Assembly (NCBI RefSeq): GCF_004010195.1
Contig: NC_057756.1
Location: 7,382,275 to 7,446,274, forward strand
Direction of reading: 5' to 3'
DNA: 64,000 nt
Source: Chiloscyllium plagiosum
Lineage: Eukaryota
Below the pieces are notes generated by a model. It saw only the letters and a list, made by a program, of their open reading frames with translations, searched no databases and was not told the origin of the DNA. A program made the position numbers and the translations under genes. How positions within the stretch are numbered: the stretch's first letter is position 1; each line of letters starts with the position of its first letter. Below, piece by piece: positions 698-44,196 of the stretch.

Positions 698-784
698 CAT
701 GATGATCATTTTTTGGATTTATAATCACAGCAGTTTATCTGTATTTTAATTGCAGCAACATCATCTAATAATTGCACCAACCTT

Positions 785-846
785 TTATCTTCTTGGAATA
801 TTTTCATAGATCGCTTGTGAATTTTCATGGAGTGCTGCAGCACGAT
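785..846 (-). CDS. Gene 1, cytoplasmic tyrosine-motif exon: (D)RAAALHENSQAIYENIPRR*
   Basis: CTTGCTTTCTCAG acceptor; phase 1 compatible with exon 4717-4763; IYENI motif; stop TAA at 787-785; possible ATTAAA polyA signal at 750-745. Confidence 0.65.
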
Positions 847-1550
847 CTGAGAAAGCAAGATATTTAGTTTACCATGAACAGATTATGGTCGAGGCATAGA
901 ATACGAAAACAGCAAAGGAAGCTTTGTATTCTATCAAGCCGGTATCACCTTCCAGTATTATCAAGTTAGACCCATTCTCGTGCTATTTTACCACAACCTC
1001 GTCAACAGTTTTCTTTGAAGAATTTATTCATTTTTCTTGTGCGTTTCTATTCAATTTGCTTCCAACCACATTTCAGTCTGCACGTTCCAGGTCTGAGGAA
1101 CAAAAAGTCTGGAGGGAAAGCACAAAACCTCACAGCTCAACCTCATTTTAGAAAAATGACTCAACCTCTTTAGTTGCTATTTATTTAACGTTATATCCAG
1201 GCATTTTGTGCACATGTCAAATCTGCTAGATCACCTCCACGATCCAGAAAAATTTACCCACTGTCCTCACAGTTCCAATGAACTGCAAACCGACTTCGCT
1301 GAAACTATTATAATAACAATTCACTTTATTACATTCCAGGCAGTACCGTTGAAGCTAAAACAATGGACAATTCTAAATTTAAATAGATTTAGAATAATTG
1401 AGTTGCAATGTATGAAAATGAAACTACGAGTTTTCATTATTCCCCTGCTGCTTTTTGAATCAATTCTGTAACTTAACTCCTAACATAGTCATTAACAGTA
1501 GGTGCAGTGAATAGAGGATCAAAGTTTATACTTGGAATTGTTCCATTTCA

Positions 1551-3995
1551 AGAAGATATAGAACATAGAACATTACGGTGCAGTACAGACCCTTTGGCCC
1601 TCATTGTTGCGCTGACCTGTGGAACCAATCTGAAGCCTGTTTATCCCACACATATCCATTTTTGATCCATATGTTTATCCAATGACCATTTAAATGCCCT
1701 CAAAGTTGCCCTCAATGTTGCAGGCAGGGTATGTCATGCCCTACTACTGAGTAAAGAAACCACCTCTTACATCTGTCCTATATTTATTACCCCCTCAATT
1801 TAAAGCTATGTCCTCTCGTGCTCGCCATCACCATCCGAGGGAAAAAATCTCTCACTGTCCACCCAATCTAAACCTCTGATGATCGTCTATGTCTCAATTA
1901 CGTCACACCTCAACCTTCTTCTCTCTAGTGAAAACAGCCTCAAGTCCCTCAGCCTTTCCTCATAAGACCTTCCCTCCATTTCAGCCATCATTTTAGTAAA
2001 TTCCCTCTGAACGATTTCCAAAGCTTCTACATTCTGCCGATAATACGGTGACCAGAACTGTACACAAAACTCCAAGTGCGGCCACAGAGTTTTGTACAAC
2101 TGCAAAATGACCTCATGGCTCCAAAACGCAGAACCTCTACCAATAAAAGTGAACAAAACTATGCCTTCTTATTAACCTAGGTGGCAACTTTCAGGGGTCT
2201 ACTCAAATGAACACAGAGATCGCTCTGCTCATCTACACTGCCAATAATCTTGCCATTAATCCAGTACTTGTTATTCCTGTTGCTCCTTCCAAAGTGAATC
2301 ACCTCACATCTTTCCACATTAAACTACATTTGCCACGTCTTAGCCCAGATCTACAGCTTATCTATTTCGCTCTGCAAATTGCAATATCCTTCATCACTAT
2401 CCACAACTCCTTAGTGTCATCCGCAAATTTACTAATACATCCTTCCATCCAGGTCATTTATGAAAAAGACAAACAGCAGTGGACCCAAGACAGATGGTTG
2501 CGGTACACCACTAGCATCTGAACACCAGGATGAACACTTCCCATCAACCACCATCCTCTGTCTTCTTTCAGCTAGCCAATTTCTGCTCCAAACTGCTAAA
2601 TCACTCTCAGTGCCATGTCTCTGTATTTTGTACAATAGCCTATCATGGGGAATCTTATCAAATGGCTTACTGAATTCTATATAAACCACATCAACCACTT
2701 TACCCTCATCCATCTGCTTGTTCATTTTCTCAAAGAACTCAATTAGGCATGAACTATTATTCACAAAACTATTCTTAATCAACTTATTCCTTGATAGATG
2801 ATTATAAATCCTATCTCTTATAACCATTGCTAACACCTTACCTACAACCAAAGTTAGGCTCACTGATCTACAACTACCAGGGTTGTCCCTACTCCCTTTC
2901 TTGAACAGAGGGAAAACATTTGCAATTCTCCAGTCTTCTGGCACTATTCCTGTAGACAATGATGACATAAAGATCAAAGCCAAAGACTCTGCAGAATCCG
3001 CCCTGGCATCCAAGACAATCTTAGAATTATTTCCATTCAGCCCTAGGGGATCTATCTATTTTCACACTTTCCAGATTGCTAAAACCTCCTCCTTGTGAAC
3101 CTCGATCCTGTCTAGTCTAGTTGTCTGTATCTCAGTATTCTCCTCGTGGACATTGTATTTTTGAAGTGTGAATACTGACGAAAAATATTCATTTAGCACT
3201 TCTCCTATCTTCTCAGGCTCCACACACAATTTCCCACTACTGCTCTTGGTTGGCCCTAAACTTACACTAGTTATTCTTTTATTCCTGATATACTAATGGA
3301 AAGCTTTTAGGGTTTTTTCTTATCTGCCAAAACTTTTCATGTCCCTTCCTGGCTCTTCTTAGTTCTCTCATTAGGTCTTTCCTGGCTAACCTGCTACTCT
3401 CAAGCATCCTAACATGAACCTTCTTCTTCCTCTTGACAAGAGATTCAACTTCCTTCGTAAACCACGGCTCTCTAACTCGACCATTCCCACCCTGCCTGAC
3501 CAGTACATAATAATCAAGGACACGTGGTAGCTGTTCTTCAAAAACTCCACATTTCAATTGTACACATGCCTCACAGTTTTCTTCTCTATTCTATGCATCC
3601 TCAATTTTGCCTTATCGCATCATAATTGCCTTTTCCCCAGTTCAACTCTTGCCCTGCAGTATATATCTATCCTTTCTATCGCTAAAGGAAGCATAACTGA
3701 GCTGTGGTCACTATCACCAAACTGCTCACCTACCTCCAAACCTAACACCTGGCTGGGTTCATTACCCAGTACCGATTCCAATGGGCCTCGCCCCTTGTTG
3801 GCCTGTTTACAGACGATGTCAGGAATCCCTCTCACACACACTGGACAAAAATGGACCCATCTATGGCATTTCCAGTCAATATTTGGAAAGTTAAAGTCTC
3901 CCATAACAATGACCCTATTACTCTCGCTCCTATCCAGAATCATCTTTGCAATCCTTTCCTCTACATCTCTGGAACGAATCGGATGTCTATAGAAA
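1551..3995 (-). mobile_element. 5'-truncated CR1-clade LINE inside a gene 1 cytoplasmic intron
   Basis: MGDFNFP, DWRIANV, RT motifs and LERRRLR; AGAACAT-type tail at ~1551-1572. Confidence 0.9.
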
Positions 3996-4716
3996 GCTAT
4001 TCAGAAACCGACAGAAAACAAAGACAAGAAGGCTAACTACCCAAACAATACCCTCAATTTTTCCTGCACGTAATCATGTTAACTGAATGATAAGAGTCAA
4101 GACCCGAATTTGCAAAAACCTTTCTATGTGCTGTGAAGTAGGATGCTGATTCCTGGTCGTCCATTTAATACTCAAACCATTACAGTAATTACAAATAAAA
4201 CATAATGCAGTTGCATCAAAGTTGACTGAAGTTACACTCTGAATTCCTGACAGGTAAATAATAAACAATTAGATTGTGTATAGCATCCGTGTCAAGATAT
4301 GCTCTCTAAGCCACTAAAATCTGTTCTGTTTTGAGAATAAAGGAATATACAAGACCGTGAAAAAATGAAACAACAAAATGTGAAAGTAGATTAGAAATTG
4401 AGATGGCGTGATTTGAAAGTTGTAGGGTGTGCAATAAAATACACAAAGGACAGTTACTTGCTATTCTTCACAACTTAGCAACAAATATAATCGTTAAAAA
4501 GATTGATTCAAAGAAATGTTATGTTATATTTCTCAATTAATTCAATTGAAAAGCACATTACCGGGATTGTTGCATTAATTTATCTTAATGTAGCTGCACA
4601 CATGAACATTCAACAGTCAGTATGATTCATGATTTAGCAAAATAATTTCAAATCAGTAAAACCTTTAAGTCTTGTATTACCACAGCAACATGGAAATGAT
4701 GAAATAATTCACTTAC

Positions 4717-4763
4717 CACTTGCTACTGAACTAGTATTTTGTCCTTGTTTTGGAGTTTTCATG
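4717..4763 (-). CDS. Gene 1, cytoplasmic exon 1: (A)MKTPKQGQNTSSVAS(G)
   Basis: TTTGTTTAG acceptor, GTAAGTG donor, 47 nt; phase 2-1 matches the end of the TM exon. Confidence 0.7.
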
Positions 4764-5300
4764 CTAAACAAATGTATGCACAATAGAGAATTGTAAGCTT
4801 TTCATGACAATGTTGGTTGAAATAATTATGACCTGGAATAGAAACTGTATTGTTAACTCTTTATTGTTCATATAAACTAAATTCATTACTGGCTGGCTGA
4901 TTTGCATATTGGGAGCATGAACACATAACTTGAATTATTTTAACCTATCATTTACTTTGTTACAAAATTTGAAGCTGCTTTGAAGCAGTGTTCAGTTGAT
5001 GATGTCTAGGAGAAATTTCTGCATTGCCATTTCAATATGGGAGATTTAAAACCATGCCACTGCATCAGAAGCAGAAATTGAGCTTTTCATTCAACTGAAA
5101 CGAAGAGCTAACACAGAGAATATTCTGATATCAATACAAAATGTCAAACATCAGCATTGTCAGTGTAAATATGCTTTTCAATTATATATGTGTTATAGAA
5201 ATATTATGAATCTACTTTTCACAAATCTACATTACTTAAACTCACCAGGCCATGAAGAAAAATCGTAAATTTCAAGGAAAAACTTATATAATGTACTTAC

Positions 5301-5424
5301 GCTTCTGACTTTCTTTTGATTAACCATGCACTAATCCCAATGGCAAAACCCAGACAAAGAAGCAAAGCAATCGCTATGCCTGCTATGGCACCATCGTTCA
5401 AATTGTCCCTGGGATTTGATTGAT
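5301..5424 (-). CDS. Gene 1, transmembrane exon: DQSNPRDNLNDGAIAGIAIALLLCLGFAIGISAWLIKRKSE
   Basis: TTTTCAG acceptor, GTAAGT donor, phase 1-2; GAIAGI start of TM as in CEACAM1-type TM exons; KRK stop-transfer sequence; not in the ORF track. Confidence 0.85.
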
Positions 5425-6699
5425 CTGAAAATGCAATAGGAACAAGTCTTGAAGGTTCACGTAATAAAATGGCCACAACTTCATCCTCTTGAGCTAACAG
5501 TCATTTAATTTACATACATGGCTTGGAAGACAGGAAGATAGTAGTAATGTCATTAGACTTGTAATCACGAGGCCGGCTAATAAAATGAGAGTTGGTGACA
5601 TCTAACTTCAGTGAGTAAATCTCGAATACACACATCTGGCTTCTGTGATGTTGAATTCACAACTGTCATCAACTGTAAAAATCCTCTGGTTCATAAATTT
5701 TTTTTATAAAATGAACTCTGCTGTCCTTCACGGTCTGTCCTGAGTCTGACTTCAGGACTGCAGCACTGCGGATGAGTCTGAAATTCCTTCTGTAATTGGT
5801 GTGGAAGCTACACAGTATCAGGACAACACACGACGCACTTTGCAGTGGTGCCCACATTTCACGAAAAATAACAGAAGAAACTAACTTCTGTGAAAACCTA
5901 GTGTTGACCTCTTGTGCTCCTGTTAAAAACAGACATTTAATATGTCATTTTATAGATTTTGCAGGCTGAATCAAGTGCTGAGTTTCTTTGAATAAAATCC
6001 GAACTACTAGATAGATAGAATGTCAAAACTCCAAAAAGAAGCATTTCAAATCCTTTTACATTGCAGAATATATTAATATGTCACCTCAGTTACAATATAT
6101 GTTCCTCTTTGTTTCAAATTCCATTCTCTGAGTCTTACAATCTGGTGCATTGTTGACACTGAAGCTATATTAGATGTAATTGGCATTCTAATTGTCCTAC
6201 TGTTAAACATCCAAGAGATGTGGACATTGCTGGTTTGGCCAGCATTTATCTCCCAATCCTCTTTGACCATGAGAAAGTGATTGTGAGCTGCTGCCTGATC
6301 TACTGGGGTCTGTTTGGTGCAAGTAAACCCCAAAAATACTCTTTGGAGGGGAGTACAATGATGTTGACACGATAACTTTAATGGAAGAATAGTAAAGTTT
6401 CTGGTCATGATAATAAATAGATCTTGCAGGTGACAGTGTTCTGAAGAATCTGCTACCTATCTGATTCTAAATGAGAGCGGACATGGGTTTGGAACATGCT
6501 ATCCAAAGAATCCTGGCGAATGTTTGCAAAAACAAAATGAGCATCTAAGAGGCATTGCATTTCCAACAATGCACAACTTTACTGACATCGATTCTACAGC
6601 TCATTTTACACTTGGCTGCATTTACGTTTCAATGAAGCCAAAGAGGTACTGAACTTCCCAACCCTAGGGAAAGGGATTTTGTCAGTGAACTGATGATTT

Positions 6700-7325
6700 T
6701 ATAAACTTCCTACGCTCCAGTGAAATACGTCCCAGCCTTTCCAGTCTATTTTTGTAACTCAACTCCTTCCTTCCTGGCCGCAACTTGGGAAAATCCTTCT
6801 GAATCCTCTCCCGCTTAATAATGCACTTTCTACAACCGGGCGACCAGAACTGCACATAGCACTCCAGAAGAGGGCTCACCAACGTCCACACAATCTCATC
6901 ATGACACCCCAACTCCTACACTCAATGGTCTGAATGATAAAGTCGAGCACGCTAAATGTTTTCTTAATCACCCGGTCTAACTCTAGTGCAAATTTCAAAG
7001 AAATAAGTACCTGATTCAGCCTGATTGGGTTATGTTTTTTCCAAATCTTCTAAAATTGCTTCTATAATAATTAATTCAAATACTTGCCCAACAATAGATG
7101 TTAGGCTGACTGGTTCTGCATTTTGGCTCCATCCCTTTTTAAGTAGGGGTGCCACATTGGCTGTCTTGCAATCATTTGACACATCTCTATATCCCACGGA
7201 ATTTTGGAAAATTACAACCAATATATCCACTATCTTTGCAGCTACCTCTATTAGGATTGTAGAATGCAATGATCTGGACAAGAGGACTTATTTGCCTTTA
7301 ATCCCATTGATTTGTCTACTTGAAA
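6700..7325 (-). mobile_element. Degenerate CR1 fragments abutting the downstream flank of V-C
   Basis: ANVAPL, VSLTSIVG and YVQFWSP motifs. Confidence 0.7.
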
Positions 7326-7437
7326 CTCACCCTCCAGCCGCTCTGAGTGTACACAGAGCAACGTGTTCCTGAATATGACTTAGTCCTCTTTTAAAGCAGC
7401 CAACACCATACACAAAGCAATAGAATATGTTACTTAC

Positions 7438-7743
7438 CAAGGACTTGCAGGGTGAGGGTCGCTGAAGCTTTCTCGCCCACTTCAGGTACCATGGTAACAG
7501 TGTACTCCCCGCCATCTGAAAACGTCAGTGAATTCAGCAGGAGTGATCCATTTGGCAGCAAAATATGAGCACGTGATTTATATTCATAATTTAGAAAAAC
7601 AGATGAACTGAACCACAGCGCAATGTTTGTCCCATTGAAAGCCCAGTTCCCATTCTTCACTGCAGCTAACGGCTTCACTGTAAATAGTGCGGTTTCTCCA
7701 ACAGACACATTAATCCGTGTGCTTTCGGTCTGGAGCAGCGAAC
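7438..7743 (-). CDS. Gene 1, IgV/N-type domain exon V-C
   Basis: Open frame GSLLQTESTRINVSVGETALFTV...NGSLLLNSLTFSDGGEYTVTM...LTLQVL; donor GTAAGTA at 7437; ancestral acceptor position (7757-7756) reads AA, and an in-frame AAG acceptor lies 12 nt downstream (7745-7744). Confidence 0.75.
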
Positions 7744-10155
7744 CTTGGAGTCGAATTAAAGAAATAAAGATCATTAAGAGAAACTTGAACCAGGTAGAAT
7801 TCTCTAAAATGGCAATGACTTCTTTTTTAACATGACCTGCTTTTCCTTATCAACTGATTGCTGTCTTATGTTTCAGTCACTGAAACAAACAGGGTTTGGA
7901 TGTGACTCTCACTGACTGAGGACAGATGGAGTTAAGGAAAGCATTGGCTGCTGATTTGGATTGCAATGGTGAGCAGAGATATTGGCAAAAAGGCAGGAAG
8001 TTAACACTAAGGAAGAGAGACGTTGCGGGCAGATTTCAGAAGAACCTTCTCCCTGCAGTGTAACAATTGTATTGGCAATCTTATACTTGACATTGAAGTA
8101 ATCGTGTCCATGCTGAGTGTTAATTTCAAGGAAGGTTCAGGAGGAGAAATTAAACGTTGTTGCCAGCATATATGTTTCAGCTGTATGAAAGCAATTTGGA
8201 AAGTGATCCCATTAGCTTCCATTCTCTGTACCACGTGTAATTATCTATACATGTGTTCAATTTATATATTAGTGCCATAAACCTTCCAAGGTAGGTTCTT
8301 TGTTGCGAACAGATTTGCATCTGTTAGGATCAACAGCTTGTATAATGTTGCCAAACCCTGAGCTAGCCAAAGTCTCTTTCTGAAGACCACTGCAGAACAC
8401 TTTTCAACCTGCATCTAATGATTCGGATGTGTTCAGCCAGATGGAAGTTCAGATGTTGCAACCAATTAGGTCACAGAAGAGATTCTGCGACGTTTTCACT
8501 GAATCCCTGTCTCATGGTGGCAGCGGCCATGAACGACATTGAAACGTCACAAATCATTTAAATCATGTTTAGGATTCAGAAATATTAAAGTGAAATAAAT
8601 GTATCACATTTAAGCATATTCTGAGGGTTTTTGTGTTGTGTGAATTTTTTTTGACATTGTGGATGTCAATTGCCAATAACATAACTATGATTGTCACTCC
8701 TTTAGGTTCAGAAAAGGTGAAAGCAGAACTGTACCTCAGAGTAGCATTGTACTGCCCATAATTCACATGACTATAGAAGGAAAATGAAATGATTCGGAAC
8801 TTACCCCTCTTATTTATATGGCAGCGTCAGTTAGAAGAGTAAATGATAGATCGAGGCAGAGACACGATGATGGGCATTCTACTGATAAATATTGTACGAT
8901 GTACACAAAATATATAAACTCTTGCTTGTAGCAGATCCGGGCTGTGTAAAAGCCAGTGGAAAGTACAGTAGAAAAATATAGTGAATGGAAAGTGAAATCA
9001 ATTGAAAAAACAAATCATCTCGGGAGGAATCCTACATCATTTAATGGTTTTTCATACAGGTGACACCAGACATTCGGAAACATGAATGTCCATAAAATTG
9101 TCATTTTTAAACAAATTAGTCATTCACAGGATTTGGGCATTGCTGGTTTTGCCAGCATTCATTGTCCAGGCCCAACTGCTCAAAGGGCAGTTAAGAGTCA
9201 CCAAATTGCTGGTTTGCAGTCACATGTAGGTGAAACCAGGTAATAATGATAGGTATGATTCCCAAAGGACAGCACTGAACCAGAATCCCCCCGTCCTCAC
9301 CACAACCCAGATAATCAACAGTGCAGGAAATTTCTGGAAAAGCTCAACAGGTCTGGGGACTGAAACCAGAGTTAACAAGTGTCACTTCTTCAGAACATGT
9401 CTGAGGACTCGACCACAAAGGTTAACTCGGATTTCTCTCCACAGATGCTGCCTGACCTGCTAAGCTTTTCCAGCAATTTGGTTTTGCTTCTGATCTACAG
9501 CATCCACAGTTCTTCCGGGTTGTAATCCGCAATTGTTCAGGTACCCATGAGGCTATATATTCCGTATTTTTGTTGAATTAAATTTCCACAATTTGCTGAT
9601 TTGAACTCAGCCTATAGAAGAACCTCAGTTTCTGCATTGAGAGTCTAGCGATGATGCCTCTAGGGCATCTCCTCCTCAATAAATGTTCCTTAAGCTGAAA
9701 GGACAATTAAGGATGTTTACAATGCAGCCACCGTTTCAAGCTGGACCAATGAAGGAAACCTGCTCAGGTGTACTCACTGGTATCTTGCCTCACCAATTCT
9801 CCAAGTCTCATCTACCTTTCATCATCCCTCGCATGATCTCTGTTTTCCACCCTCACATTCTCACCACCTCACTCCAATCTCTGTTTCCATATTCCCATGT
9901 GAGGTTGACCTCCCCAGAGGGCGGCTGTGATGCGAAATATTGGAAGCAAGAGAGAAACTTGTTTAAATGTGCAGGATCCATGTGTCTCAGTGATATTATG
10001 GCACACATCTCTGGGTGAGTTGGACTCATAACGAGATTTAATCTCCCTCACCCACGCCATCCCGAGTGTACACAGAGAAAATCACTTCTGAACATCGCTT
10101 ACGCTCCTCTAACGCAGACAACCGCATGCACAGAGCAATAGAACATACAGCTTAC

Positions 10156-10473
10156 CAAGTACATGCAGGGTAAGAGTCTCTGACGCTGGGTCGCCCACTT
10201 CAGGGAACATGGTAACATTGTACTCCCCACTGTCTGAAAACGTCACGGACTTCAGCAGGAGTGATCTATTTGGCAGGAAAATCTCAGCACGGAACTTGTG
10301 TTCATTGCTAAGACATACAGATGAACCAATCCATAACCCAATGTTTTTCCCTTTGAATTCCCAGATCCCATTCTTCGCTGCAGCTGATGGTTTCACCGAA
10401 AAGATTGCCGTTTCTCCAACAGTCACATTAATCTGTCTGTGTTCGGTCTGGATCGTGAACGACTGGGGCTCAG
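10156..10473 (-). CDS. Gene 1, IgV/N-type domain exon V-B (intact)
   Basis: 318-nt open phase 1-1 exon with AG and GTAAG sites; V-set pattern G-x-x-A-x-F, W in C strand, R-A-E, SLLLKSVTFSDSGEYNV, LTLHV; no canonical disulfide cysteines, as in CEACAM N domains. Confidence 0.85.
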
Positions 10474-10659
10474 CTGGAGAAATCAACATCATTAAGGAAG
10501 TTGCAATCAGAAACTCTCCACCATGTATACTTCTCCAAAATCCAAAACATAAATCTGATATTTTCTCACAGTCGTTTGCTGGCTTGGTTTGCCAAGTTCC
10601 CAAATAGAATGTGTTAGTATTCCTAACTCTGAACCACGACACCCAGGTACAATTCTTAC

Positions 10660-10686
10660 CTTCCGTGGGGGTCTGTAATGGCATCT
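10660..10686 (-). CDS. Gene 1, 27-nt microexon of cassette B: (E)MPLQTPTE(G)
   Basis: TTGCAG acceptor, GTAAG donor, phase 1-1; 24/27 nt identical to copy A. Confidence 0.5.
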
Positions 10687-10744
10687 CTGCAACGGTTGCG
10701 TTGCAAAATCTCTAGAATAGTAGGTAAGAGGAAGTGTACCTCAC

Positions 10745-10796
10745 CTACTGCCATTAATAAGCAAACAGAGATCGTGGTGAGTGGCAGTTTCGCCCT
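10745..10796 (-). pseudogene. Duplicated leader exon of cassette B with start codon lost (ATG>AGG)
   Basis: Colinear with 13079-13130: AGG GCG AAA CTG CCA CTC ACC ACG ATC TCT GTT TGC TTA TTA ATG GCA GTA G, followed by donor GTGAGG. Confidence 0.75.
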
Positions 10797-12486
10797 CCCA
10801 ATTGCAACCCTCACCCATCCAGTCTGTTACATTCAGAGACCGATTGGAACATTACAAATCATTTACTTTATGCTTAGGATTCAGAAATATTACAGTGAAA
10901 CAAATGCTGTATCACATTTAAGGATATTCTGACGGTTTCTGTTTTGTGAAAACAAAATTGTTGTATTGGTACTGTGAATGTCGATTGCCAATGACATTAT
11001 GAGGATTGTCACTCCTTTAGGTTCAGAAAAGGTGAAAACAGAACTGTAACACAGAGCAGCATTGTGTTGCTCATAGTTCACATGATTGTGGAAGGAAAAC
11101 ACAATAATTCAAAAGCTACCACACTTATTTACGTGACAGCATCAGTTAGAAGAACAAATGATAGGTCAAAGCATAGACATGATGATGGACATTCTACTGA
11201 TAAATATTGCATCTTGCACACAACATATATAAATTTTCGCTTGTGGCAGATTTGTAATGTGTAAAAGCCAGTGGAAAGTACAGTAGAATAACACAGTGGA
11301 TGAAAGGTGAAATCAATGGAAAAATTCAGATGTCGATCTAGGGAGAAATCCCACCTCATTTATTGGTTTCTTGTACAGGTGACACCAGACATTCAGAAAC
11401 ATGAGTGTCCATAAACTTGTCTTTTTTATTATTATTAGTCATTAACAGGGTTTGGGCATCGCTGGTTTGGCCAGCATTCATTGCCCAGGCCTAACTGCTC
11501 AAAGGGCCACTAAGACCACCAAATTGCTGGTCTGCAGTCACATGTAGGTGAGACCAGGTAATGATGCCAGGTATCCTTCCCAAAGGACAGCACTGAACCA
11601 GAATCTCCTCAACCTATTCATAACCCGGATAATCAACAGTGCTGGAAATTTCTGGAAAATCTCAACAGGTCTGGGGGCTGAAATCAGAGTTAAAATGTCA
11701 GATCAAGTGTCCCTTCTTCAGAACGGTTCTGAGGATGAGTCACTCAACTCCACACGTTAACTCTGATTTCAGTCCACAGATGCTGCCTGACCTGCCAAGA
11801 TTTTCCAGTAATTTGGTTTAGTTTCTGATCTATAGCATCCACAGTTCTTTCGGCTTGTAGTCTGCAATGTTTCAGGGTCAACATGAGTCTATTCATTCCA
11901 GATTTTGGTTGACTTAAATTTCCACAATCTGCTGAGTTGAACTCAGCCTTTCGAAGAACCTCAGTTTCTGCTTTGAGAGTCTAGCGATAATGCTTCTAGG
12001 GCATCTCCTCCTTAATAAATGTTCCTTAAGCTGATGGTGCAATTAGGGATGGTTACAATGCAGCCACCGTTACAAAGTAGAACAATGAAGGGAACCTGCT
12101 CAGGTGTATTCACTGGCATCCTGTCTCACCAATTCTCCAAGTCTCTTCTACCTTTCATCATCACTCACAAAATCTGTATCGTCCTCCCCCACCTTCACAC
12201 AACCTCACTCCAATCTCTGTTTCCATGTCCCATGTTGACCTTTCCAGAAGCCAACCTCTGATGGGAAACATTGGAAACCAGAGAGAAAACTTTTTTGGTG
12301 TGCAGGATCCTTGTGTGACAGTGATAATATGGCGCACAGATCTGGGTGAGTGGGATTTAGAGTGAGATTGAATCTCCCCCACTCGCGCCATCCTGAGTGT
12401 GTACACAGCAAATCACTCCTGAACATCACTTACACCCCTCTAATTCAGACAACCACATACACAGAGCAATAGAACATGCAGCTTAT

Positions 12487-12801
12487 CAAGTACATGCAGG
12501 GTGAGAGCCGCTGACACTTGGTCACCCGCTTCAGGAACCATGGTAACAAAGTACTCCCCACTGTCTGAAAACATCACTGACTTTAGCAGAAGTGATCCAC
12601 TTAGCGTTAAAATCTCAGCACGCAACTTGTAATCATTACTTATTGAAGCAAATGAACCGATCCATAACCCAATGTTTCTCCCTTGGAAATCCCAGTTCCC
12701 ACTCTTCACAGCAGCCGATGATTTCACTGAAAAGTTTGCCGTTTCTCCAACAGTCATATTAATTCTGTGTTCGGTCTGGATCGTGAATGACTGGGGCTCA
12801 G
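12487..12801 (-). CDS. Gene 1, IgV/N-type domain exon V-A (no B/F-strand cysteines); splice donor mutated to ATAAGC
   Basis: 315-nt open phase 1-1 exon AEPQSFTIQTEH...GSLLLKSVMFSDSGEYFVTM...LTLHVL; TTTCTCCAG acceptor; donor position homologous to GTAAGC of V-B reads ATAAGC (12486); read-through stops at 12442-12440. Confidence 0.75.
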
Positions 12802-12994
12802 CTGGAGAAATCAACATCATTAAGGAAGTTACAGACAAAAACTCTCCACTATATATATTTCTCTGACATTTCTGACATTTTCTGACATTCTGACATTTTC
12901 TAACAATTGCTAGATGTCTTGGTTTTCCAAGTTCCCAAATAAATGGTAAAGTGTTTGTATTCCTACCACTGAGGCTCCCAGGTACAAGTCTTAC

Positions 12995-13021
12995 CTTCTG
13001 TCGGGGTCTGTAATGGCATAT
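12995..13021 (-). CDS. Gene 1, 27-nt microexon of cassette A: (D)MPLQTPTE(G), phase 1-1
   Basis: TTTGCAG acceptor and GTAAG donor; all 3 differences from the copy at 10660-10686 fall at third codon positions; upstream intron is only 57 nt. Confidence 0.55.
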
Positions 13022-13078
13022 CTGCAAAGGGTGAGTTGCAAGATATCTAGAACAGTTAGTAAGTCAACGTGTACTCAC

Positions 13079-13130
13079 CCCCTGCCATGAATAAACAAAC
13101 AGAGATGGTGGTAAGTGGCAGTTTCGCCAT
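13079..13130 (-). CDS. Gene 1 (CEACAM-like Ig receptor), leader exon of cassette A: MAKLPLTTISVCLFMAG|G, phase 1
   Basis: ATG at 13130-13128; 52 nt (17 codons + 1 nt); hydrophobic signal-peptide-like sequence; strong donor GTGAGTAC at 13078; paralogous copy at 10745-10796. Confidence 0.8.
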
Positions 13131-14779
13131 TTTGAATGCAACCTCACTCCTCCAGTCTCTGTTACATTCAGAGACTGACCCTCTCCCCCTGGTGCAGATC
13201 AATGAAGATAGTTTCGGAAAAGGCAACGCTAATTGGTCCAAATTCTGGTCATCTGACAGGAAACTCATTGCACAGTGTACAGTGAGAGGATAACAGCTGG
13301 TAACAAAAATCAGTAGAAAAATCAGATTCCCGCTCGTTCAGAAATCTAAATATTGTTCCTCTATTCTACAGTCATGTCAATATGAGGCCTACTTATCCTT
13401 CAACCGGGACACCCATGGTTCAATTTTCACTTTAGCTACTTGTGCATGGACTTTCTGGATGGCGTTCAGAACCATTCCTCAAAGAAAGCAGCTAGATCTG
13501 GGCAGCTTCAGTGGTGGAATACGATGGAAAAAAACATTCATAGCACAGAAGAGTCAGACAATGACCATTTTAAACAAGAATGTGCAACTCGTCCATTGCT
13601 TTCAGTAGCATTGTCAAACCTCTCGAATTCATCTCTCAACATGGTGCTCATCTCATCCCTTAAACACACTGTATTCAGCGAATTGTTAAAGTATCACTCT
13701 TTGCCAAAGAAAAGACTTTTCATCAGTTACAGTGTACACGTTGAACGTTGGTTGTAATATTCTGGACAAGCCTGGACATATACAGCGAGGATAAACAACG
13801 TTGTCTAGGATAAAGTCATTGGCTAGGATTGAAAGATAATCAACAAAATTAAACGCTCGTGCACTATGGATAGCAGTCGACATTGCCCACAATTCAACTC
13901 ATCACCAAACCTTCTCCCACAAGTCATTGCAAACATATAACCTCTATTTTTTTTCTGTGGAAAATCTCTTCCCATTGCTTGAAGAATTGAAGGCACCAGA
14001 CATTTGCTACGCTCAAAAAAAACCAAATGAAACCATGATGATAGGAAGCAAAGGTTGTTTACAGAATGACTGGTTGTCATCTGAAGTGCTTTTTCTGAGG
14101 GTTTAGTGGAGGGATATTGATCAAAAGAAAGTGGAGTCACTGTCTGAATTGAAATATCTGCAGGGTGTGAAGCAACAGCCTTGCTACATTGTTATTTCTG
14201 AGAGCAAGGAGAGACATGATGGACCAAATGGACTTCTTCTATGATGGAGCCAGCTATGTTGCTTCAGTCTATGAGGGGCAACAGCATGAGGTTCAGAGCA
14301 AGTTCAGCTTTAATCACTACAACCATGTATGTGCCAGAGCACCGTGAGAGATTGTCATCCAACTGCTTTTAATCAGAATCTTCCCTTCTATCCTAAATAC
14401 GGCAGTGAAAATGCCTATTCCATTGTAATTTTTATATAGAGAGAATGTGGGATAAGGGATCGCTGGCAGGACCAGCATTTGGTGGCTGTCCTTTGTTGCA
14501 CTTAAGGTGATGGTGAGCTGCTTTCCTGAACCACTGCAGTCCATTAATAGTTATGGAGGCAGTTCCAGGGAATTCCACTGAAGGAGATGTCATATAGTTC
14601 TAAGTCCAGGTGGTGTGTGGGAACACAAACATCATCATAATCCTGTTTATGTTCAGCCTTTGTCCTTCAAGATGGTTGTAGTCGTAGTTTGGGAAGATGC
14701 TGTCTAAGAGTTGTTGGTGAGTTCCTGCAGTGCACCTTGCAGACACTGCTGATGCTGAACGTTGGTGATGGAGCAGTCA

Positions 14780-18609: not shown

Positions 18610-20021
18610 GGAATAATATGATTACTTTAACAACCTAAGTATAATATTGCAAATAAAGGGTATCACTATAGTTTGCCAGTTCTTAAAGAAAAACAGAATA
18701 ACATATATATAAAACACTTGGCAGTGAAACTAATAGCTGCTTCCACGTTGAATATTTGTTCTATCCATAGAAAGGTGACAGCCAGAAATGCATTAGACCA
18801 TTTGACCCCCTCTCCATATTGCAGTTCCTTCAAAGGGATTTGAAAGATACTTCCATCAATGTACATTTGATCACTTTTTCGTACTTATCCATACATGCTT
18901 CAGTGATGTCTTGATACCACTCCTCAAAAGAAATAGTTTCGATTGTAGACTAGTTATTTTCACATCTCTGAATAACAACAAACTGTATGAACATTGCCAA
19001 ACACTGAGCCACCCAAAGTTTATCTCTGTAAGTCTGTGTACAACTGAGGCTGGAACTTTATTTTTACATTTTAACAGTTGCAACGTGGCCAGTCACAATG
19101 AAGATCAAATGTTGCAACGAACTGGGTGCCGAAGACGTCGAAGTCTTATTTCACTCCTTCAGCTGTCCTGGAATATATATTAATATTTGAGCACTACATA
19201 AAATTAAAAATATCCTCAAGGTCCTGTTTGCCCTCAATATCAGTTCAGCCAATATCTGAACCAAATCAAGTTTGTTTTCAGAATTCATCATGTATACCGT
19301 TAGTGAATAGTCTCCTTTAGACCTAATTTATCAAATGACTAATGCCAGTCAATGTAAATAGTATCTGGCATTATCCATTACTTCAGTTTTGTCTTCAAGG
19401 AACTCAGGTTTTCCAGTTACAACAAGTGCTCAAAAACTCTTGGTGACTTTCTGTCATCCACCAAAGATGGCTAATGTCTCTGCCGTGATCTAGATGGCAG
19501 CAGTTTTAAAGAAATAACCTGTTTGGCTAACTAACTTGGAGTACAAAATATTAGAAGCGACACACATACTAAAAAATCTCACCTCCAGAAACATAAGTAG
19601 AAATGATGAAAATGCCAAGTAAAATCTTCATTTTTACTTTGTTCTTTGATAAAATCGTACAGTGCAGTTACATACAGTTCTTCTCAAAGTTCTGTGTCAG
19701 TCAGTCAGTTTGTACTCACAAGAAAGTACAACGCCTCAAACAAATAGAACCTTTGACTGGTTCAGAGGTGTCATTATGCAACATATTAGCTTCATTCTGC
19801 CTGACAGTAGTGGCATTCTGCCACACATGATCAGTCCCAGTCATACACTGCAACCAATTGTTTCAAAATAACTACATCATTCAACAACACTATCAACTCC
19901 TTGTCACTTCAACTCCTTCCTGTTGAAGTGACAAAGTCTCGCAGCTGGAATTCAGAAATGTTGATGCATAGAAAATATAAGCAGGAGTAGGCCATTCGAG
20001 CCTGTTCCACCATTCAATATG

Positions 20022-23995: not shown

Positions 23996-24837
23996 NNNNN
24001 NNNNNNNNNNNNNNNNNNNNNNNNNNNNNNNNNNNNNNNNNNNNNNNNNNNNNNNNNNNNNNNNNNNNNNNNNNNNNNNNNNNNNNNNNNNNNNNNNNNN
24101 NNNNNNNNNNNNNNNNNNNNNNNNNNNNNNNNNNNNNNNNNNNNNNNNNNNNNNNNNNNNNNNNNNNNNNNNNNNNNNNNNNNNNNNNNNNNNNNNNNNN
24201 NNNNNNNNNNNNNNNNNNNNNNNNNNNNNNNNNNNNNNNNNNNNNNNNNNNNNNNNNNNNNNNNNNNNNNNNNNNNNNNNNNNNNNNNNNNNNNNNNNNN
24301 NNNNNNNNNNNNNNNNNNNNNNNNNNNNNNNNNNNNNNNNNNNNNNNNNNNNNNNNNNNNNNNNNNNNNNNNNNNNNNNNNNNNNNNNNNNNNNNNNNNN
24401 NNNNNNNNNNNNNNNNNNNNNNNNNNNNNNNNNNNNNNNNNNNNNNNNNNNNNNNNNNNNNNNNNNNNNNNNNNNNNNNNNNNNNNNNNNNNNNNNNNNN
24501 NNNNNNNNNNNNNNNNNNNNNNNNNNNNNNNNNNNNNNNNNNNNNNNNNNNNNNNNNNNNNNNNNNNNNNNNNNNNNNNNNNNNNNNNNNNNNNNNNNNN
24601 NNNNNNNNNNNNNNNNNNNNNNNNNNNNNNNNNNNNNNNNNNNNNNNNNNNNNNNNNNNNNNNNNNNNNNNNNNNNNNNNNNNNNNNNNNNNNNNNNNNN
24701 NNNNNNNNNNNNNNNNNNNNNNNNNNNNNNNNNNNNNNNNNNNNNNNNNNNNNNNNNNNNNNNNNNNNNNNNNNNNNNNNNNNNNNNNNNNNNNNNNNNN
24801 NNNNNNNNNNNNNNNNNNNNNNNNNNNNNNNNNNNNN
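23996..24837. other. Assembly gap (842 N)
   Basis: Run of N. Confidence 1.
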
Positions 24838-43885: not shown

Positions 43886-44196
43886 CAAACACAGAAAGGA
43901 TTATTGTTGTATCTGCTACAACACCAGTCAATGAGTTCATGGTAACGCTGCACTGTCTGAAGCAGTCACTGATTTGAGCAGGAGAGAGCCATTAATTAAT
44001 AAGAACTCCACCCGCCCGAGGTAAACATTATTAATGTCTGCTGTTTTGTTAATCCACATAAGTACATCTGATCCGTTGTGTTTCCAAGATCCACTCCTCA
44101 CCCTCTCCGACGGTCTCACTGACAGGAGCACAGGGTCTCTGACTGCTGCATTAATCCGCCTCTCACTCACTGAGATGGTCAAAGCCTCAGAGTCAA
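43886..44196 (-). pseudogene. Gene 2, cysteine-less IgV exon with a 7-nt frameshifting deletion in the D-x-G-x-Y motif
   Basis: CCCCTTGTAG acceptor, GTGAGT donor; VDSEALTISVSERRINAAV...NGSLLLKSVTASDS, then frameshift, then VTMNSLTGVVADTTIILSVF|G; 311 nt = 318 (V-B length) minus 7. Confidence 0.85.

Follow-up and report, generated by a model that had tools for sequence, protein, structure and literature searches.

The window analysed here is a stretch of 64,000 nucleotides from the shark Chiloscyllium plagiosum (NC_057756.1, positions 7,382,275 to 7,446,274; 7.38–7.45 Mb of the contig designated C47), and contains a CEACAM-like gene at 7.38–7.40 Mb. The coding exons of the gene, all on the minus strand and with AG/GT ends, encode a leader (leader A), two immunoglobulin V-type (IgV) domains (V-B and V-C), a transmembrane (TM) segment, and two cytoplasmic segments (cyt1 and cyt2). 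The predicted protein begins with a secretory-type leader and continues with two N domains, each bearing three N-glycosylation sequons, followed by one TM helix and a tail that has about 40 residues and a single tyrosine. The domain exons are symmetric phase-1 exons following a short leader exon, a layout common to many immunoglobulin genes. Comparison with a paralog indicates that the gene likely arose from a duplicate of an activating CEACAM, of the type carrying an ITAM (immunoreceptor tyrosine-based activation motif), by loss of the ITAM.

The paralog, located at C47:8140376–8169841 on the minus strand, has the appearance of an intact N-only CEACAM with a split ITAM. It is collinear with the gene in the window, and the two are 70–79% alike over the leader, V, TM, cyt1, and cyt2 exons and the introns between them. 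Two additional exons of the paralog, cyt3 and cyt4, encode the motif Y-T|G-L-x7-Y-S-E-L (Y-x-x-L-x7-Y-x-x-L), which is split at phase 0. The end of cyt2 reads AAA CAA AAG|GT in the paralog and AGA TAA AAG|GT in the gene in the window, where a stop replaces the CAA codon. The cyt2 donor after position 782 is still used, and splices to untranslated exons about 1.8 kb left of the window (window −1754 and −1880), with no ITAM in frame. No match to cyt3 or cyt4 was found in the 20 kb downstream of the gene, and in a genome-wide DNA search, restricted to the best candidates, their single match was to themselves. Because of the stop at the position of the CAA codon and the lack of ITAM exons downstream, the tail is interpreted as a truncated ITAM type. 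The residue at position −2 of the YENI motif is alanine, so that neither the consensus of the ITIM (immunoreceptor tyrosine-based inhibition motif) nor that of the switch motif (ITSM) fits. Further N exons of the paralog may be hidden by a gap of Ns at 8163846 and by a duplicate V exon on contig C82182; its models contain three to four near-identical N domains in C. punctatum and one in the epaulette shark.

Junctions of the gene were observed in contigs of four sequencing runs (X2–X5) from two studies; seven of the 19 listed runs were examined. Runs X2–X4 are RNA by guess, X5 is unlabelled, and none carries a tissue name; the case for splicing is made by the junctions themselves. In the other three runs, the listed pieces of X1 were unspliced, X9 (of which about 2% was read) matched in repeats only, and X10 gave no matching pieces; single-cell reads covered no exon. 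The cyt2/cyt1 (846/4717) and cyt1/TM (4763/5301) junctions occur with canonical ends in all four runs, the TM/V-C junction (5424/7438) in three, and the V-C/V-B junction in four, in two of which its short side measures just 27 letters. V-C joins the TM exon directly, with no IgC exon between them in the transcript. One contig of X5 connects 13354–13079 straight to 10473, joining leader A to V-B. An alternative first exon (19656–19583) opens a 1149-nt contig of X3, which continues through V-B, V-C, TM, cyt1, and cyt2 and 215 nt further, with 74 letters on the short side of the join to V-B. The same first exon is joined in X4 to V-C, skipping V-B (27 letters on the short side). X5 alone contains a donor at 8805 spliced to V-C (joint 7741/8803), also with 27 letters on the short side. 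A retrocopy was considered as the origin of the spliced contigs, but among the best candidates of searches with V and TM there was no copy in which the two lie adjacent without an intron. In the intron after V-B (window 8805–10156), the contig depth of X5 exceeds that of most other introns, and a transcript reading on past V-B would meet a stop after 15 codons, so that the resulting short form would lack the TM exon.

Table 1 Features of the CEACAM-like gene in window coordinates
Feature	Position	Strand	Remarks
Alternative first exon	19583..19656	-	ATG 19631; phase-1 donor; own hydrophobic leader, sequence unrelated to leader A
First exon with leader A	13079..13354	-	ATG 13130; coding 13130-13079, 52 nt
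Microexon-like stretch, 27 nt	12995..13021	-	AG/GT ends; use not seen
V-A, open IgV exon	12487..12801	-	Donor AT instead of GT; absent from the observed junctions
Leader B, duplicate of leader A	10745..10796	-	AGG where leader A has ATG
V-B, the expressed protein's first IgV (N) domain	10156..10473	-	Junctions; AlphaFold IgV fold; best PDB sequence match CEACAM1
Extra donor at 8805, spliced to V-C	8805..8900	-	5' end of exon undefined; leader frame not open
V-C, second IgV domain	7438..7743	-	Clusters with the third N domain in the whale shark and zebra shark models
Transmembrane exon (GAIAGI)	5301..5424	-	Phase 1 to phase 2
Cytoplasmic exon 1 (cyt1), 47 nt	4717..4763	-	Splice junctions; RefSeq model
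Cytoplasmic exon 2 (cyt2) with YENI	782..846	-	Stop TAA 787-785; donor after 782

An earlier reading of the window, made from its letters without database searches (the sequence-only reading), had placed leader A, V-B, V-C, TM, cyt1, and cyt2 where the junctions of the four runs put them, with V exons spliced to the TM exon and with the GAIAGI and YENI motifs, both of which are present. The join that it proposed, in which a 27-nt microexon follows the leader, does measure 936 nt and encodes 311 residues with no internal stop. Use of the microexon was not borne out: it is skipped in the sole contig crossing it (X5) and in the RefSeq model. The homologous stretch of the ITAM paralog is 26 nt long. 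V-A, likewise proposed as an exon, has an AT donor and is included in no listed junction; at 98% likeness it is covered by one low-depth unspliced piece in X4 and by none in X2, X3, and X5. Read-through from V-A would reach a stop after 15 codons. The second leader, the leader copy with AGG, and the splicing out of cyt2 at 782 go beyond the sequence-only reading, which overlooked the main point, namely that the tail is a truncated ITAM type and that an ITAM paralog and a CEACAM1-like gene form a set together with this gene.

The AT donor of V-A and the AGG start of leader B are explained by a tandem duplication spanning 8538–13178, the two units of which (8538–10843 and 10843–13178) are 82% identical and include the copy of the leader. 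V-A is nearest to the N exon of the ITAM paralog (91% nucleotide identity), in agreement with the tree described below. The acceptor that V-C uses (AAG) is shifted 12 nt downstream from the paralogous position, where the sequence is AA. An array of the protocadherin type, with variable exons spliced onto shared constant exons, was rejected as the main interpretation, since V-A lacks a donor and leader B lacks an ATG; nonetheless, two first exons and the skipping of V-B both occur.

The gene had been considered hidden; however, it is already covered by the RefSeq model XP_043539175.1, annotated as "uncharacterized". The model contains the 302-residue join without the microexon as an exact substring, preceded by a 46-residue extension that starts at an in-frame ATG at 13268, 46 codons before the ATG of leader A at 13130. 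Cyt1 was placed through this model, as an AG/GT scan of the window had not shown it. The RefSeq gene LOC122544186 (XP_043539175.1, XP_043539173.1) is named either "uncharacterized" or "immunoglobulin superfamily member 22-like", and none of the three cluster members has the alternative leader. Its isoform X1 takes the leader and first V domain from a paralog 0.78 Mb away. V-B and this paralog are identical over the first 20 aligned codons, and isoform X1 is therefore probably a chimeric model created by a mis-join.

The V domains read D-S/G-G-E-Y-x-V and lack a cysteine pair, as the sequence-only reading had noted; V-A and V-C contain no cysteine, and V-B contains one, at residue 53. None of 49 shark domains has two cysteines. 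An N-terminal IgV domain without the B–F disulfide is shared with the CD2/SLAM family and is not diagnostic for CEACAM. AlphaFold models V-B as an IgV domain, with a predicted local distance difference test score (pLDDT) of 93.9. The Pfam V-set and I-set scores of all three V exons are below the curated cut-offs. The best PDB sequence match of a single V domain is CEACAM1, with a weak E-value of 5e-4. In a V-only profile search, CEA, CEACAM1, and CEACAM6 account for seven of the top eight of 28 PDB matches, several CEA scores being sums over IgC domains, and E 0.001 is not reached by any CD2/SLAM chain. A tree of 49 shark N domains, built without a non-shark outgroup (one weakly matching teleost protein had no domain above the cut-off), places V-A, V-B, V-C, and the N domain of a LIPE-linked N+IgC gene in a carpet-shark clade (support 100/98).

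The assignment to the CEACAM family holds by genomic context, which is stronger than similarity in sequence or fold. Thirteen of the 15 V matches, the best candidates of a genome search, lie on C47 between 4.95 and 8.17 Mb. A CEACAM1-like sister gene on the opposite strand (C47:5.09–5.15 Mb) has one N exon, IgC exons, and a tail reading VVYSQP...TAYAEL. LIPE is located beside this N+IgC gene, at C47:5.24–5.26 Mb. LIPE is the flanking marker that defines CEACAM loci in frogs, reptiles, and fish (PMC5112662, PMC13278318, PMC3628338), and VSIG10-like, CEACAM5-like, cxcl17, and lipeb genes are reported together at a catshark locus (bioRxiv 10.64898/2026.03.04.709523). The description of the gene as a CEACAM-like receptor of a cartilaginous fish, with V domains only and no IgC exon in its transcript, is supported.

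Further copies of the exons are scattered over the contig. A fourth IgV exon in the window (43952–44194, minus strand) is 38% identical to V-B, has a frameshift before the F strand, and shares its subtype with open exons at C47:6.65 and 7.06 Mb. A third V-TM-cyt1-cyt2 unit (C47:6561377–6568636, plus strand) has a broken V exon and retains YENI; no ITAM exons were matched in the 17 kb after it. The alternative leader exon has one other copy in the genome, with an open leader frame and a donor (C47:7121588–7121932, minus strand), situated some 64 kb upstream from the 7.06-Mb V exon. The cyt1–cyt2 intron contains a decayed element with reverse-transcriptase-like frames (window 1558–3995), which we take to be a long interspersed nuclear element (LINE), and an N gap of 842 bases lies upstream of the gene (window 23996–24837).

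A protein search with V-B yielded 20 proteins among 201 candidates, all from sharks. Orthologous models exist in C. punctatum, whale shark, and zebra shark, and the alternative leader is in use in those of C. punctatum and zebra shark, both of which are without the YENI/ITAM part of the tail. The whale shark model is ITAM-less and ends after YENI; it and the protein studied here are the two matches among 68 candidates of a tail search. Tails with YEN[IV] and an ITAM occur in six of 17 proteins screened, in six shark species. Several other sharks have proteins with one to six N domains and no IgC domain, among them basking shark model P0001, with six tandem N domains and an ITAM tail. The novelty that the sequence-only reading had implied for the all-V layout is not supported. 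The first N domain of a basking shark ITAM protein is identical in 98 of 105 residues (93%) to the N domain of a CEACAM1-like protein of the same species, and this model-based identity suggests that receptor pairing does seem to occur in sharks.

We propose, with a probability of about 0.55, that the gene is an ITAM-type CEACAM duplicate that lost its ITAM and whose product, a type I membrane protein with two IgV domains lacking the cysteine pair, would bind CEACAM ligands without ITAM signalling. The N domains may share their class of binding partners with the CEACAM1-like neighbour, such as microbial adhesins or other CEACAMs. The retained YENI tyrosine could dock Grb2-type SH2 domains, a role for YxN that agrees with publications on ITAM-type CEACAMs (PMC5112662, PMC2832619), or, as a Yxx-hydrophobic motif, drive uptake. 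Deprived of the ITAM, the gene product would bind ligand, or mop it up, and not trigger signals of the Syk-type pathway, and might serve alongside the inhibitory and activating members as a decoy or dampener.

Several observations weigh against this proposal. The N domain of the CEACAM1-like gene is 69% identical in amino acids to V-B and 64% to V-C, below the 80–93% of Xenopus paired receptors (PMC5112662). The synonymous divergence (dS) from that N domain is 0.85–0.97 with no high-identity tract, which points to no recent gene conversion with the CEACAM1-like gene in this species; the GC content at third codon positions also differs (0.62 versus 0.45–0.51). The ratio of non-synonymous to synonymous divergence (dN/dS) among all-N exons is 0.47–0.75, and all 10 pairs compared stay below 1. 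TIGIT and PD-L1 lead the fold searches, in which the top Z values of 14–16 are near ties and the rows shown include no CEACAM. LIPE is 2.1 Mb away from the gene, and the ITAM-less tail of the whale shark is based on one automatic model. The cyt2 piece of X2–X4 contains one mismatch of unplaced position; if it abolished the stop, the downstream frames would still contain no ITAM.

The dN/dS values give no diversifying signal and suit a different function, that of an epithelial or leukocyte adhesion protein engaged in homophilic or heterophilic N–N contacts with no link to pathogens. The V-C ortholog is kept across carpet sharks, and a teleost CEACAM marks gill ionocytes (PMC8274849), as might be expected of such a protein. 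Descent from an ITAM-type gene speaks against pure adhesion, as does the near-identity of the two basking shark N domains, which resembles that of paired receptors, and we consider this reading unlikely, if still the strongest competitor. The duplicate could also be transcribed and yet drifting into decay. The AT donor, the AGG start, the shifted V-C acceptor, the early stop in cyt2, the stray splice from 8805, and the broken relatives at window 43952–44194 and C47:6.56 Mb would all fit a decaying gene. However, the frame is open, junctions are clean in four runs of two studies, and orthologous models exist in three other sharks. The stop is located 3 nt before the next junction and, provided that no further junction follows, would be expected to escape decay under the textbook rule for stops just before a last junction. 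Decay appears improbable.

The proposal of an ITAM-stripped CEACAM also has to be weighed against membership in another IgV family without the cysteine pair, such as CD2/SLAM, HEPACAM, or VSIG10L, with loose similarity to CEACAM. Single-domain PDB scores are weak, with CD2 at E 0.13, level with the isolated N domain of CEACAM1, the folds do not single out CEACAM, and one study reports that the same shark locus includes a VSIG10-like gene (bioRxiv 10.64898/2026.03.04.709523). The preponderance of CEACAMs and the failure of CD2/SLAM chains in the V-only profile search, the grouping with the N domain of the LIPE-linked gene, and the match of the tail exons to ITAM CEACAMs make such membership very improbable.

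On a broader scale, we tentatively speculate that sharks might carry a full CEACAM arms-race kit, consisting of an inhibitory CEACAM1-like receptor, ITAM decoys on the exon plan of marsupials and frogs, and a conserved ITAM-stripped multi-N decoy expressed from two promoters, although we hold this somewhat less probable than not. If so, the activating CEACAM tail would go back to the last common ancestor of jawed vertebrates, and sharks would widen pathogen binding in their own way, through tandem amplification of N exons. By itself, the gene is of modest interest: it was already modelled, all-V CEACAMs were known, and signal-less decoys have been published for reptiles. It illustrates the conversion of an activating receptor into a retained non-ITAM form, and the defined set of three genes in one shark makes ligand sharing and signalling testable. 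The bamboo shark breeds in captivity.

CEACAMs of cartilaginous fish have been published from skate expressed sequence tags (PMC4079198, PMC3628338). One report states in its abstract that an architecture with an ITAM extends "from cartilaginous fish to humans", whereas its text shows ITAMs for teleosts (PMC3628338). Zimmermann and Kammerer 2016, where it deals with fish, gives the make-up of the CEACAM family and paired receptors as unstudied (PMC5112662). Our literature search, which covered few subscription journals and left aside supplements with tail alignments, returned no shark set of inhibitory and activating CEACAMs and no ITAM-stripped YxN member of the kind seen here and in the whale shark model.

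The closest known systems are the ITAM-type CEACAM1-related receptors of marsupials, Xenopus, and reptiles, and human CEACAM3, with which the gene has in common an N ectodomain without the cysteine pair and YxN in cyt2. Marsupial ITAM CEACAMs have four cytoplasmic exons, the second of which encodes YxN, and a phase-0 split in the ITAM; the 2010 paper reads the marsupial ITAM exons as gained separately from the eutherian ones (PMC2832619). Xenopus ITAM CEACAMs combine YxN with a split ITAM (PMC5112662), and reptilian ones have a tyrosine 17–21 residues ahead of the ITAM (PMC13278318). The shark paralog likewise has four cytoplasmic exons and a phase-0-split ITAM about 20 residues past the YxN tyrosine (20 residues in shark ITAM protein model P0003), and this plan, with YxN in exon 2, argues that the tail type is ancient. 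The gene in the window differs from the ITAM-type receptors in ending after YENI without an ITAM, in its two tandem N domains, and in its two unrelated first exons; from described paired CEACAMs, in the lower similarity of its N domains to the CEACAM1-like gene; and from CEACAM1-like inhibitory receptors, in lacking IgC (A/B) domains and an ITIM/ITSM tail. Tuatara CEACAM1L4 has three N domains only, and signal-less decoys 96–99% identical to CEACAM1 N have been proposed in turtles to derive from ITIM genes by TM read-through (PMC13278318). With these the gene shares the all-IgV ectodomain and the loss of signalling exons, the latter in a membrane-bound member. In contrast to the turtle decoys from ITIM genes, it would derive from an ITAM gene and has kept one tyrosine motif.

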